A stretch of 64,000 nt of DNA from a virus: IMG/VR virus record IMGVR_UViG_3300030228_000019; one strand, given 5' to 3'. Shown in pieces: positions 1 through 64,000 of this stretch. The position numbers were made by a program, and so were the translations under genes. Below the pieces are notes generated by a model that was not told where the DNA came from, ran no database searches, and saw only the letters and a list, made by a program, of their open reading frames with translations. Position 1 is the stretch's first letter. Each line of letters begins with the position of its first letter.

Positions 1-167
1 ATACTGCAATACAAATCAAGAAGTGTATTATTTTGTAATTTATAAATGTCTGTTGGCTTAACCATTACCTGTGCATCAATTAATGTTTTTATTAAATCAA
101 AAAATTCATTTTTTGTCATTTTATCAATAATTATTATAAAAAGAATGTTTAAAATAAAAAACAAATA

Positions 168-175
168 TTTAAATA
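168..175 (+). promoter_or_regulatory. Archaeal TATA box (TTTAAATA) upstream of ORF 207
   Basis: TTTAAATA about 30 nt before the ATG; the same motif lies 20-35 nt upstream of starts at 21145, 29521 and 30887. Confidence 0.55.
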
Positions 176-206
176 TATAAAATATTAATATTATAGTATT
201 GATAAT

Positions 207-839
207 ATGGCTGGAATTAAAACAGTTTTGCTCATTATTTTAATAGTGGCAGTAATTTTTGCATATTTGTATATATTTCATCCAAGTTATATTGGTAAAA
301 AATTAACAACTACTACTGTTTTACCATCAAATAATACAATAACTAATGCCTTTAATAATTATACAACAACAGCAGAAAAAGAATTTAATGTTTCTAATTC
401 AAGTGTTGTTTCAATTTTGCCAAACAAAGAACCCTATTTATTAAATGAGGTTCTTGAGTCTAATCCCAACCCAATACTTATTATCAATTATACTTATAAT
501 GGAAAAATATATCAGTTACCACAATGGTTTTCTCTATCATTTTCAAATGTAACAGCAAATCTTCCAAATTTTAATGGTCAACATGTTCAATTTTTATTTT
601 TTATGAACAAAACAGCAGCAATAAATTATACTGGAAATCCAGCTAATAGCACACCAATGATATTTAACTACAGTGTTGCTGTGAATGGAACTACTTATAA
701 ATTTACATTTATAAATAATAAAAATAATAAAATAATATCTGTCCTTTCAATTCCATTTAATAAACATCAAGTATTTTATACAATTGGTTTTGAATATAAT
801 AAAACTGTTTATTTAATTCCAGACATAGCAATTGGTTAA
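207..839 (+). CDS. Membrane-anchored secreted protein
   Basis: N-terminal TM helix; Asn/Thr-rich with many N-x-S/T sequons. Confidence 0.8.
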   Translation: MAGIKTVLLIILIVAVIFAYLYIFHPSYIGKKLTTTTVLPSNNTITNAFNNYTTTAEKEFNVSNSSVVSILPNKEPYLLNEVLESNPNPILIINYTYNGKIYQLPQWFSLSFSNVTANLPNFNGQHVQFLFFMNKTAAINYTGNPANSTPMIFNYSVAVNGTTYKFTFINNKNNKIISVLSIPFNKHQVFYTIGFEYNKTVYLIPDIAIG

Positions 840-844
840 TAAAA

Positions 845-3800
845 TTATGTTCTAACATTTTCATATAATGCATAGCCATTAATTGATGAGCCAGATATTG
901 ACCTTGTTGAACTTTCAAGAATATACTCAGATTTTGATATATATAAAAGGTTTGTAGTTCCATCATTATTTACCAGTTTGGTGTTTGCAAACCCTCTAAT
1001 ATAAGCATCAGTTTTACACACCTTATTATTACAAAATCCATATGATACACCACTTGGTTCAGAAGGAATTGTTGTATTGAAAGTTCCTGGTGCTATACTG
1101 ATTTGTGTGGTGGTATTATATATAATAATTCCAGCAACTTGTGAATCAGCTACTCTTTCAGGGGTTCCACCTATAATACCACAACTATGATAAAAATTCT
1201 TTGATGTTATAAGATAATTATATAAAGATTGATACTGGGTGACAAAATTGTTGCAAGTGCTTGGTGGTGAATCAGTAATATTTATATTATAACTTTCAAA
1301 TATAGGAACAGTATAACCATAAAATAAATTAAAGGTAGCTGGTTCCACTGGTAAAATTGAATAACTATTTGATAAATTAAAAAAAGTATCATAGCCTGGT
1401 CCTATATTTAAATTTTGCAGAGATTGTATTGTAACAAGTGGTGTATAACCAAATGTTTTAGTATATGCAGAGATTCCTGTGTTTCCACTAGGACCATTAA
1501 TGTCATAATTAGCAGTTCCATTTGAAAATAATGCTGTTGAAATAAGACCACTTTTAGTTACAGTTGAAACCTGTCCATTAATATTTCCAATAACTAAACA
1601 ATTATCAAGTATTCCAGAATCATAACATTTTGTATAATTTCCATTATTTGAAATTGTCTGTGAACTTGAAACAAAATGATTATTATTGGTGTTGTAAAAT
1701 CCTTCTGTTAGGGAGTATGTGGTTCCACTATACAAGTTAATATATTTAGAAGGGGCTGGTAATACAAAAAGATGTTGTGTGGCTATACTTGTGTTTTTTA
1801 TATAACTGCTATCAAAAGAAGTAAAGATGGGACCACCTGTAATATTATAAGGAACAGTTGTCCATCCAAGTGTTGAAAAACTATAAGGTTGACCAACTAA
1901 ATTTGTTGTTATATTTAGTGGAACAAGGTAAATTGCAATTATAGTATAATTATTTTTATCTGACAAACCAGATATTGTTTTACCAGTTACACCAGAAATT
2001 ATTTCATTTTTTATACCACTAACATATGTTTTTGTTGTATTATCATAAATGGTTAATAAATAATTTTTATTTTTTAAATAATTTGAATAATAAAATTTTA
2101 CTGGATTAATATCTATACTATATATTGTTGGTGAACCCTCTAAATAATAAGTTGTTATATTTGTATATGGTTCACTGGTATTAACTGTTGTATAACCAAA
2201 ATTAGTAGAAACAGCATGAGGAATTAATGAAATATCACCAATACTATCAGGATAGTTATACACAGTGATTGTTCCTGTTGATTTTATTATTTTATTAAAA
2301 AGCACTGATACATTTACAGATATAGTATCAATATATGTTTTATTTATTTTTGGATAACTTTGATTAAACAAGATTGCTGCTTCTTGTTCTGTTATATTAA
2401 TTGGTAAAGAAGTTGTTGATGTTGGTGGTGCTTTGTTTGATTTCAAAACTGTTCCATTTTTTAAATAATATGTAAATTGTATTGTGCTTTCTGGTAAATT
2501 TATTGAATAATTTTGTGAATTATATACAAATTTGTTTTTTGTATTTATATAAAAATATGTTGTATTATCACCAGGTATATCTTGGAATATAGCACCATTT
2601 GAATTTCCATACACTGGGTCAAAACTGTTACCCCAGTTTGAATGTGCAGACACCTGATAAAATGAAAAATTATCATTACCACTGTTTAATTCAGGATTTG
2701 AATACATTTCTATTTTTCCAGCATTATTTATATAAACAGTCAAATTATTTATATTTAAATTTGATGTTGTAAGATTATTAGCAACTGCTGTTGGATAAAT
2801 ATCTGATATTAACACATTTTTCCAAGCAGCATTTAAATACCCTGTTCCTGTCACATGACAGTTATTTCCACTGCACCCACCAGTTCCACCACCAGTGGGT
2901 GGAGGTGGTGGTATTACATGATAGTTTGCTATTATTGTAACATTTTGGCAACCATTAAGTGCTTTCCAATTGTAATTAAAACTTTCTGAATTAGAATTTG
3001 AAATTTTATCACCATTGCAATAAACATTTTGTGATACAAAACTTCCACTGCTTGAAGAGGTTGCTGCAAATGTCCATGTAAATCCAAATGTTGTATTTAA
3101 AGTATTAGCTGAAAATACATTTGTTTTATTAAATGTAAAAGTATAAGGTGTTGCTGTATTTGTTTGATTAGACCAGCCTATTAATGAATTTGTTGGTATT
3201 GCATTTGCTGAAAATGTTGTTGAAACACCACCTAAATTACTGGTTGCTTCCCATGAAATTGTTGGTAAACTAATCTTGAAATTAGCAGTATAGTTTGTTG
3301 CATTTACAACAGTAAATGTATAAGGATTTTGTGTTATTGTTGTTCCAGCATGGGTCCAATTACTAAAAGCATAATATGTATTTGCATTTCCAGTTATTAT
3401 TACTGATTTTCCTTTTGGAACAAATTCACTAATATTATTTCCTGTTATAGTTTTATTATTATATGGTGTATATATACTAACATTTCCTCTTGAACTATTT
3501 GAAGTTTTTACACTAATATTATATTCATATTCATAATCAGCTTGTAAGGTGCAGGGTGCAAATGATAATGATTTAACTGTTTGTGATGGATTAAACAAAT
3601 TAAATCCAGTTGAACATGATAATGAAACAGATGTGTTAAAATCAACAAATGCTAATGCTTTGGTCTTTGTTTTTGTTAAAATAGCAGGATAATTAAAAGA
3701 ATAAGGTGCTGCATCCTGATACATTGTATATGGTAAATTTCTTACAGATTGTTGAATACAAAATCTTGAGGCATCAACACCACAAGTAATATTTGTATCA

Positions 3801-62555: not shown

Positions 62556-62676
62556 AAAAGATAAAAACTTTTTATTAAATTGGTTTGCAGTATAGCAATT
62601 GATTATTATAAAGCTAAATTTAATAAATTAAAAAAGTATCTGTAATTTTAAATTAACACATTGTCTTATTTTATGA

Positions 62677-63060
62677 GTGACACCAGTGAACTCTTTCAAA
62701 AAACATCAGTTTATAAAAAGCATATTTGAAACAGTTACCATTGGTGCTGCTTTAATTAGTATATATTTGTTTTTAATAACAAATTTTGTAAACATAGGAT
62801 TACCAATTGTTATTATTACTATTATATTTTCTTTCATTATTTTTATGGCAATTATTTTTGTATTTTATAGCAACATAACAATTGAATGGTATAATTTTAA
62901 AGAGGAAATTGAATTTGAAATATCATCTTTAAAAACCACAAAATTATTTCTAAAAACAATGATAGAATTTTCTCAAAAGCCAAGACTTAAAAAAGAGTTA
63001 AAAAAAGAGATAAAAGAAATAAACAGCAATATCAGAAAATTGAATAAAAAACTTATTTAA
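62677..63060 (+). CDS. Two-TM membrane protein
   Basis: Two hydrophobic helices and a basic coiled tail. Confidence 0.65.
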   Translation: MTPVNSFKKHQFIKSIFETVTIGAALISIYLFLITNFVNIGLPIVIITIIFSFIIFMAIIFVFYSNITIEWYNFKEEIEFEISSLKTTKLFLKTMIEFSQKPRLKKELKKEIKEINSNIRKLNKKLI

Positions 63061-63326
63061 ACAGAGGAAGACTTTATTTGACTCCAATATGGGTTTTCAT
63101 CAGGTTTTACAGTTTTTATTCCATCAAAAAGCAGTTTTTCAATTTTTGAATAATCAATTTCAATATTTTTCTTTCTTAAAGATTCAACTTCAATAACAAG
63201 AGGTTCAACCAGCCAATCTTGATAAGTATTTTGGTGTAAGTTCATTTTTAGGTTTTTATTTATTTTTTTTGTAACATCTAAAAGTCTGTTTATTTCTTTA
63301 TCTGGTCCATTATTCATAAAAGTCAC
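63057..63326 (-). CDS. Hypothetical protein
   Basis: 89-aa ORF. Confidence 0.55.
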   Translation of the reverse strand: MTFMNNGPDKEINRLLDVTKKINKNLKMNLHQNTYQDWLVEPLVIEVESLRKKNIEIDYSKIEKLLFDGIKTVKPDENPYWSQIKSSSV

Positions 63327-63431
63327 ACAATACTATTGTATTATTAAATATTTATATGTTTCAGTTTTCACTAAAACACTTTAATACACAGTTGTATGGT
63401 ATTAGAGCAACAAACAGAAAAAAATAAACAA

Positions 63432-63998
63432 TTAGTCAAATATTTTTTCTAATATTACTTGTATTTCTTTTTCTCCTTCTGTTTCATTATATATATTTTT
63501 TATTTCATAATCAAATGGAAGGCTGTCTATTTCAGTTTCAGTTGGGTCATTAAGTTCAATTTCTGTTGGTTCTCTTCCATATATTTCCTTATATTTTTTT
63601 ATTCTATTTTTAATATCAGGACTTATTTTAACAACAAATAACTTTCTTTGTGTGTTTCCTGTATATAAAAGATATGAAAGTTCATTCATAAATCTAACAT
63701 CATCAACTATAAAAGGAAATTGTTTTTTTGTTGCAATACTGGTTGCAAGATATTTTATCCAAACATCAGGGTCAATTTCTCTCATTTTTGAACCAAGTTG
63801 CTGCAATAATCTTCTGTTTTTTTCCTTCATACCAAAAACATCTTTTGCAACATCTTTTAGTTTTGCTGCTATTGAAACTTTATAAGCTGTAATACCTTGC
63901 TTTTCTAATTCTTCTTTTAATTTATCAGCATAATATGTCTTTCCAGCAGCCATGTGTCCTATAAAAACTACTCCATCATATTTTATTTGTTTATCCAT
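63432..63998 (-). CDS. Phage-type deoxynucleoside monophosphate kinase
   Basis: GHMAAGKT, A.KLK, RRLLQQLG..MR..DPDVWI, IVDDVRFMNE. Confidence 0.82.
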   Translation of the reverse strand: MDKQIKYDGVVFIGHMAAGKTYYADKLKEELEKQGITAYKVSIAAKLKDVAKDVFGMKEKNRRLLQQLGSKMREIDPDVWIKYLATSIATKKQFPFIVDDVRFMNELSYLLYTGNTQRKLFVVKISPDIKNRIKKYKEIYGREPTEIELNDPTETEIDSLPFDYEIKNIYNETEGEKEIQVILEKIFD

Positions 63999-64000
63999 TT

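Follow-up and report, generated by a model that had tools for sequence, protein, structure and literature searches.

The 64,000-nucleotide stretch of DNA analyzed here (the window; IMG/VR virus record IMGVR_UViG_3300030228_000019) contains not a single CG dinucleotide, against 1,041 expected from its base composition. The window comes from an element of ~116.3 kb that is apparently circular, and the public sequencing runs that contain it are acid mine drainage (AMD) metagenomes. All relatives fetched are CG-free as well, and several other short palindromes are missing together with CG. We favor, at a probability of roughly 0.6, the reading that the element escapes the DNA-cutting defenses of its host by carrying none of their target words and not by methylating its own DNA.

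The count was taken directly over all 64,000 bases. With 8,575 C and 7,772 G (25.5% G+C), the chance of finding no CG is about e^-1041. The other dinucleotides of C and G are common, with observed/expected (o/e) ratios of 1.24 for GC (1,295 occurrences), 1.27 for CC and 1.31 for GG. TG (1.28) and CA (1.33) are over-represented and TA is below expectation (0.80). CAG/CTG is strongly over-represented, at 1.55 of the first-order Markov expectation. An earlier note, made by reading the sequence alone, had stated that CG is wholly absent and that GC, CC and GG are common. Both statements are borne out by the count, and its estimates of ~25% G+C and ~1,000 expected CGs were accurate.

CG is absent from every coding context. 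In the 84 open reading frames (ORFs), which cover 87% of the window under genetic code table 11, it is missing at codon positions 1-2 (0 against 203 expected), at positions 2-3 (0 against 276) and across the junctions between position 3 of one codon and position 1 of the next (0 against 304). Codons ending in C are never followed by codons starting with G (0 of 3,486), while they make up 2–45% elsewhere. Arginine is encoded by AGA and AGG only and the NCG codons are unused, so the earlier reading that CGN arginine codons, NCG codons and NNC-GNN junctions are all forbidden is right. An alternative genetic code was considered and is unneeded, since table 11 gives the 87% coding density and intact long ORFs. 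The 8.1 kb of non-coding DNA likewise has 0 CG against 90 expected.

The RNA genes comply too. The window encodes tRNA-Lys(UUU) at 32418..32493 and tRNA-Leu(CAA) at 36188..36272, both on the plus strand, CG-free and genuine (Rfam scores of 51 and 42 bits). Their T-loops are UUCAAAU and UGCAAAU, respectively, as had been noticed earlier in the DNA letters TTCAAAT and TGCAAAT. The T-loop consensus is UUCGAAU, and the element's tRNAs have A where the consensus has G.

The absence extends to a whole family of related elements. The VirB4/TraG-type P-loop ATPase of the window served as the marker for tracing it. Its full-length homologs at 47–66% identity were found on contigs of up to 58 kb in the NCBI, ENA, Logan and JGI assemblies, in conserved synteny with the flap endonuclease FEN1 and other ATPases. 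An exhaustive search with the family-B DNA polymerase (PolB) encoded beyond the window end gave an isolated clade at 61, 45, 42 and 39% identity, followed by a fall to ~31%. Contigs with proteins of this clade reach 138 kb.

CG is zero in every family locus fetched. The most distant member, L038 (39% PolB identity, from a Logan run pair), has 0 against 316 expected, and the pooled non-redundant family DNA of 179.6 kb has 0 against 2,912. As controls counted alike, bacterial loci with distant VirB4 proteins and AT-rich viral contigs whose PolBs are only remotely related have CG o/e ratios of 0.28–0.90. Between members, identity at the fourfold-degenerate sites of conserved residues is 0.49–0.65 against a random level of 0.46, and nine of the nine invariant arginine columns of the VirB4-like protein are AGA or AGG (AGR). 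As the fourfold divergence is near saturation, all members are CG-free and the arginine columns stay AGR, the trait is ancient and independently maintained in each lineage.

Outside this family only remote matches were found. Megablast of 20-kb window pieces against plasmids and phages gave no match, and tblastn against annotated plasmids and phages reached at most 28% identity for PolB and ~24% for the VirB4-like protein. Queries with the SNF2 helicase, the VirB4-like protein and PolB retrieved no family member from the viral contig collection. In the genome collection the only matches were Bacteroidota VirB4 at ~24% identity, and the metagenome scan gave only the JABEBX contig, an already known relative. 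Large archaeal extrachromosomal elements of this group, equipped with their own replication machinery and a DNA-transfer apparatus, had not been described before.

CG is joined by other forbidden words. The absence of GATC, GTAC and GGCC is additional to what the earlier note had noticed: in the window, each strand has 0 GATC against 85 expected, 0 GTAC against 63 and 0 GGCC against 21. Likewise GATATC (12 expected), GTATAC (7.5) and CTGCAG (6.5) are all at zero. We scanned words of length 2–6 over 85.5 kb of the genome, and the same extent, i.e. the window and ~21 kb of flanks out of the ~116 kb, was read for gene content. The significantly missing words are CG, GATC, GTAC, GGCC, GATATC, GTATAC and CTGCAG, and CAGCTG nearly reaches significance. 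All the flagged words are palindromic and no non-palindromic word was flagged.

The set of missing words consists of a common core and branch-specific extras. CG, GATC, GTAC and GGCC are wanting in all family members. Only the L003, L018/L019 and L038 branches lack CTAG altogether, only L018/L019 lack AGCT, and only L003, L018 and L038 lack GCWGC. In the window, CTAG (0.53), CATG (0.66) and AGCT (0.72) are partially depleted. The absent words are typical targets of archaeal restriction–modification (R-M) systems. A family-wide core with extras that vary by branch is the pattern expected from hosts that would differ in their R-M repertoires.

The Thermoplasmatales are the dominant AMD archaea. 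R-M systems for GATC, CGCG, TCGA, CGCC, CCSGG and CATG are recorded in cultured Thermoplasmatales and the AMD I-plasma genome (PMC11033074), and Dick et al. could discriminate AMD Thermoplasmatales populations by their GATC usage (PMC2745766). Avoiding orthodox Type II sites is known as a way to counter restriction (PMC6286503).

In the favored reading, any mutation creating a forbidden palindrome would be removed by selection, and the selective agents would be host nucleases. From such purging would follow the AGA/AGG-only arginine, the lack of NCG codons and NNC-GNN junctions, the A in the T-loops and the compliance of intergenic DNA. At least one agent would read bare CG, unmodified or methylated, or CG in a highly degenerate context, NCGN. 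Either a restriction-type nuclease from which the host is protected by CG methylation or a modification-dependent nuclease that attacks DNA marked by a CG methylase could fill this role.

We also considered whether CG is lost merely as a by-product of avoiding CG-centered palindromes (ACGT, TCGA, CCGG, GCGC and longer ones), and rejected this. At this base composition such palindromes would take in only ~31% of random CGs, so some agent must read CG itself.

The earlier note had proposed that CG is actively counter-selected by way of a nuclease or modification system recognizing it. The counter-selection part is well supported by the family-wide extent of the absence, its presence in all sequence classes, the co-absence of restriction palindromes, and the ratio of CG decay to CG creation, above ~7,500, that would otherwise be needed. 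The proposed agent was not found, and the 85.5 kb of the element yielded neither a methyltransferase nor a restriction enzyme.

Strain variation was inspected for newly arising CG. None of 52 strain single-nucleotide polymorphisms (SNPs) creates a CG, against 3.9 expected, nor does any of 35 contig-level variants, against 3.4 expected, the latter set partly overlapping the 52 SNPs. These numbers are consistent with selection but weak. Contigs from one sample diverge from the element at 1168 and 16118 and run on into CG-bearing sequence, with words ending in ...GAGAGACGGGTGTT and ...CTGATGTCGG. At 1168, run X1 of the other sample also has a minor branch, at a depth of 12 against 39–54 for the main path. 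The CG-bearing junction words occur in no locus fetched and nowhere in the viral contig collection. Foreign DNA such as an insertion sequence may have inserted there, or the branches may be alternative alleles, or k-mer or assembly chimeras.

Several points weigh against restriction avoidance as the cause. No CG-specific nuclease or methyltransferase was identified in the 85.5 kb of the element searched, with the host itself not identified, and the unread ~31 kb could encode a relevant enzyme. We know of no described restriction enzyme that recognizes only CG. The excess of TG and CA fits a deamination route of CG loss equally well, and selection would produce it too. R-M systems of cultured Thermoplasma target GANTC and GTNAC, neither of which is avoided. 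Lastly, if the branches at 1168 and 16118 are real insertions, CG-bearing DNA is at least transiently tolerated.

Among the other explanations, hypermutation without selection is one of the two that survive best, and it is still improbable. Here, CG methylation or a cytosine deaminase acting in the CG context would turn CG into TG and CA until none remains. The TG and CA excess is what such decay leaves, and prokaryotes do have CpG-specific methyltransferases, which are linked to strong CpG under-representation in Mycoplasma penetrans (cited in PMC11282364). However, 0 CG beside 22,527 TG and CA requires decay to outrun creation more than ~7,500-fold, far past known methylation-driven depletion. 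Functionally preferred CGs such as that of the tRNA T-loop are gone too. A bias on CG cannot remove GATC, GTAC and GGCC, or the branch-specific CTAG, AGCT and GCWGC, and the 85.5 kb yielded neither a DNA methyltransferase nor a deaminase that acts on DNA. A purely mutational account therefore fails on the ratio, the T-loop loss and the missing non-CG palindromes.

About equally improbable is that the element itself makes the weapon. A nuclease of its own would cut CG in the DNA of the host or competitors and the nucleotides would be recycled, with the element immune by having no CG. Its nucleotide salvage and pool enzymes (the deoxynucleotidase NT5C, a dNMP-kinase-like protein, nucleoside diphosphate kinase and a dCTP deaminase/dUTPase) would fit the recycling of degraded DNA. 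The lack of a methyltransferase among the genes found is also as expected, and there is room for such a nuclease in the ~31 kb outside the 85.5 kb read and among the many ORFs of obscure function.

The nucleases found are, however, of replication and repair types only: FEN1, a DEDDh exonuclease, Mre11 and a weak Hjc-like match (E=0.0014). Three proteins were probed and none is a nuclease, one being a DUF2341/LamG-like surface protein, one an uninformative protein and one a sugar epimerase. Moreover, a single self-made nuclease would leave at least seven further forbidden palindromes, with their differences between branches, without explanation. The position of a 25%-G+C replicon in a community whose listed genomes have 35–69% G+C (PMC2745766) would account for the pool enzymes as well.

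A little less probable still is that the host genome is itself CG-free and the element mirrors it. Elements often resemble their hosts in oligonucleotide usage (PMC2745766), and one relative was binned into an NCBI metagenome-assembled genome (GCA_013285365.1). Yet Dick et al. list AMD community genomes of 35–69% G+C and report no unusual CG-free population (PMC2745766). No ribosomal or other housekeeping gene is present in the ~180 kb of family DNA. Methylation protects cellular genomes, in which avoidance is typically no more than partial (PMC6286503, PMC11033074). A host-wide signature, were it true, would only move the question to the host.

Targeting at the RNA level is very unlikely. A ribonuclease or RNA sensor specific for CG, working like ZAP in vertebrates, would select against CG in transcripts, and CG suppression by RNA sensing is indeed established for vertebrate viruses. 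The element is present in an RNA library (run X7), as contigs only, which are no evidence of transcription. The 8.1 kb of intergenic DNA, with the origin-like region, has no CG either, the words missing alongside CG are classic restriction palindromes of double-stranded DNA, and for archaea, to which the element belongs by its genes, no CG-reading RNA defense was found in the literature searched.

An artefact of sequencing, assembly or data processing is effectively refuted, since independent pipelines and studies (Logan, JGI, ENA and NCBI) reproduce the zero, the ORFs are intact with conserved arginines as AGR, and the same counting finds CG in the unrelated control loci.

As to the element, its size and topology come from JGI contigs. 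The window's exact proteins lie on contigs of 116,315, 116,406, 116,446, 118,155 and 106,703 bp. Two such contigs begin at window ~22,734 and ~218 and yet are nearly equal in size. From these differing starts and near-equal sizes, we infer that the element is circular or circularly permuted with a length of ~116.3 kb.

A conjugative-type set of genes occupies the first third of the window: a VirB4-family ATPase, ATPases of the FtsK/HerA and VirB11/FlaI types, and small ORFs for membrane or pilin-like proteins. The VirB4/TraG-type ATPase, of the conjugal DNA-transfer type, is at 5688..8690 on the minus strand (PF19044, PF01935, PF12846 and NCBIfam VirB4 models). The FtsK/HerA-type ATPase, a candidate coupling or DNA-pumping protein, is at 11613..14267 (minus), and the FlaI/VirB11/PilB-type (T2SSE) secretion ATPase at 14284..16209 (plus). 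The latter is adjoined by small pilin-like proteins (17572-19364). In one JGI assembly (L005/L027), the FtsK/HerA-like gene is split into ORFs of 636 and 230 aa, whereas it is intact with 883–884 aa in the others; the split has a ~52 bp discontinuity near window 12305-12357.

The information-processing genes are of archaeal type. FEN1 is encoded at 16204..17172 on the minus strand, with archaeal FEN1 as the best PDB matches (E 2.5e-45) and a TIGR03674 match at 3e-71. Beyond the window end, there are genes for a helicase, an M16 peptidase, PolB, PriX, a TFB-like Zn-ribbon protein, Mre11 and Rad50. In the L038 relative, both subunits (A and B) of archaeal topoisomerase VI adjoin PriX and PolB (L038:2520-5163), so the replication gene set of the family is larger than seen in the window. 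An SNF2-family helicase gene lies at 47998..49689 (minus). A strong PADLOC PDC-S04 match belongs to none of ten ORFs checked and is probably this helicase.

Nucleotide metabolism is well represented. Nucleoside diphosphate kinase is encoded at 35421..35960 on the minus strand. A cluster for the nucleotide pool and replication accessories runs through 52867..64000, with DUF1599 ('nucleotide modification associated', 52867-53457), the NT5C deoxynucleotidase (54404-54994), the dCTP deaminase/dUTPase (58526-58999), the DEDDh exonuclease (61109-61795) and the dNMP-kinase-like protein (63432-63998). Plausibly, the nucleotide-pool genes adapt a 25%-G+C replicon to life in hosts of higher G+C.

The surface-related genes are also many, with four large secreted proteins besides the membrane and pilin-like proteins encoded in the window. 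The 1,248-aa protein at 845..4591 (minus) has an N-terminal hydrophobic segment of a secreted or surface protein and varies between strains by an SNP cluster and 3-bp indels. DUF2341/LamG-like and InlB B-repeat domains occur in a family of large secreted proteins at window 23672-25888, 26153-28696 and 49667-52891 and at L036:7792-9936, and two of these share a C-terminal region matched by phrog_7548. A small plus-strand cluster for sugar nucleotides (20340..23020) is made of a sugar-1-phosphate nucleotidyltransferase (20340-21119), a weak NUDIX-like ORF (21172-22035) and an NAD-dependent epimerase/dehydratase (22061-23020). Judging from these genes, this cluster and DUF1599 could possibly serve glycosylation of surface proteins or modification of DNA bases.

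The strain variants are clustered in two places. One is window 1-2500, where numerous SNPs and a pair of 3-bp indels fall in or near the gene of the 1,248-aa secreted protein and the small ORF 207-839. The other is an SNP cluster at window 11399-11733 around a small membrane-protein ORF (11148-11567). These clusters suggest diversifying surface components.

A non-coding, CG-free region at 37900..38300, within the gene-poor interval 36997-39433, looks like a replication origin. Its 66-nt hairpin (38067-38203) has a GC-rich core at 38110-38160, and copies of a TTCCATTTTTATGGAA-type repeat, both inverted and in tandem, lie symmetrically on either side of the hairpin. The trend of the cumulative GC skew shifts near 32-36 kb of the window. 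Next to the tRNA-Leu gene, ARAGORN predicts at 36114-36184 a tRNA-like gene that is odd in having an 'anticodon' of 2 bases, and Rfam gives no tRNA match there at E<=1. A T-arm-like GTTCAAATCCC occurs just upstream of it, at ~36091-36101. The tRNA-like 36091-36184 may be a degenerate, split or permuted tRNA.

Virion hallmarks such as capsid, portal or terminase were not recognized in the 85.5 kb, where many ORFs are of obscure function. No relaxase family appears among the Pfam, NCBIfam and PHROG matches of the 84 window ORFs, which is weak evidence because archaeal systems may lack one, and no integrase was recognized in the element. With no housekeeping, capsid, portal, terminase or relaxase genes and only remote similarity to annotated plasmids and phages, it is apparently a large, conjugative-plasmid-like archaeal extrachromosomal element with its own replication toolkit, and possibly a virus.

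Leads toward the host are weak. The nearest cellular homologs of FEN1 are from Micrarchaeota, Woesearchaeota, Sulfolobales and Asgard at 35–41% identity, and the homologs of the sugar nucleotidyltransferase are all internal to the family. The atlas look-alikes of the DUF2341 surface protein are mostly from Micrarchaeota and Parvarchaeota, with a score of 0.84. These look-alikes and the R-M repertoire of the Thermoplasmatales point, if weakly, toward the host. We propose only tentatively, at odds somewhat below even, that AMD archaea (Thermoplasmatales or ARMAN-type DPANN) with a defense nuclease reading bare CG, maybe a methylation-dependent one, drove these replicons of ~100–140 kb to become CG-free.

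The element resembles several known systems and departs from each. Phages, archaeal viruses and broad-host-range plasmids avoid restriction sites so that their unmethylated DNA escapes Type II restriction (Rusinov et al. 2018, PMC6286503; Gelfand and Koonin 1997, as cited in PMC7320823). As in those cases, the avoided words are short palindromes with GATC as the commonest, and the set varies by lineage. No protective methyltransferase was found in the 85.5 kb of the element. Unlike the known avoidance of 4–6 bp sites, a 2-bp word with ~1,900 sites expected per 116-kb genome is wholly lost here. The loss alters codon usage, codon pairing and RNA genes and is conserved down to 39% PolB identity.

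The CpG depletion by methylation and deamination, as in vertebrates and with M.MpeI of Mycoplasma penetrans (cited in PMC11282364), also affects CG and leaves a TG/CA excess. Those genomes keep a substantial CG residue, whereas the element is exactly at zero, T-loops and conserved arginine codons included. Its non-CG palindromes are equally absent, and a CG methyltransferase was not found in its 85.5 kb. The CpG suppression in vertebrate viruses through ZAP and TLR9 is similarly a selection against CG by a host sensor of non-self nucleic acid. However, it is vertebrate-specific and partial, while the element is archaeal and its CG absence reaches intergenic DNA.

In its transfer genes, the element is like the conjugative elements of the archaeal, Gram-positive and Mollicutes types, which have VirB4/TrsE, coupling and VirB11/FlaI-type ATPases, and it has its own such ATPases and membrane or pilin-like proteins. 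It differs from them in sharing ~24% identity at most with annotated plasmids and in having no recognized relaxase or integrase. Unlike most plasmids, it carries an archaeal replication toolkit (PolB, PriX, FEN1, Mre11/Rad50 and the TFB-like protein, with topoisomerase VI in the relative), which is unusual.

CG-less coding DNA can be fully functional, as in the synthetic CpG-free plasmids and transgenes of, for example, PMC2440937 and PMC5070371. Those are engineered and a few kb long, whereas here a natural and evolving replicon family of ~116 kb has the same property. In the literature searched, on CpG-free genomes, AMD elements and archaeal restriction avoidance, neither a naturally CG-free genome nor these elements are described. 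A natural ~116 kb replicon family that has wholly lost one of the 16 dinucleotides, and stayed so across deep divergence, thus appears unreported in that literature.

The forbidden-word profile, i.e. CG, GATC, GTAC and GGCC with the branch-specific extras, could serve as a fingerprint for finding relatives, and could match elements to hosts through their restriction repertoires. The favored reading predicts that AMD archaeal communities contain a CG-reading nuclease or a modification-dependent system. Such an enzyme, if it exists, would be a new defense specificity and potentially a useful reagent for CpG and methylation analysis. For the family itself, the zero CG would show how far restriction-site avoidance can reach, reshaping codon usage, codon pairing and even tRNA loops.

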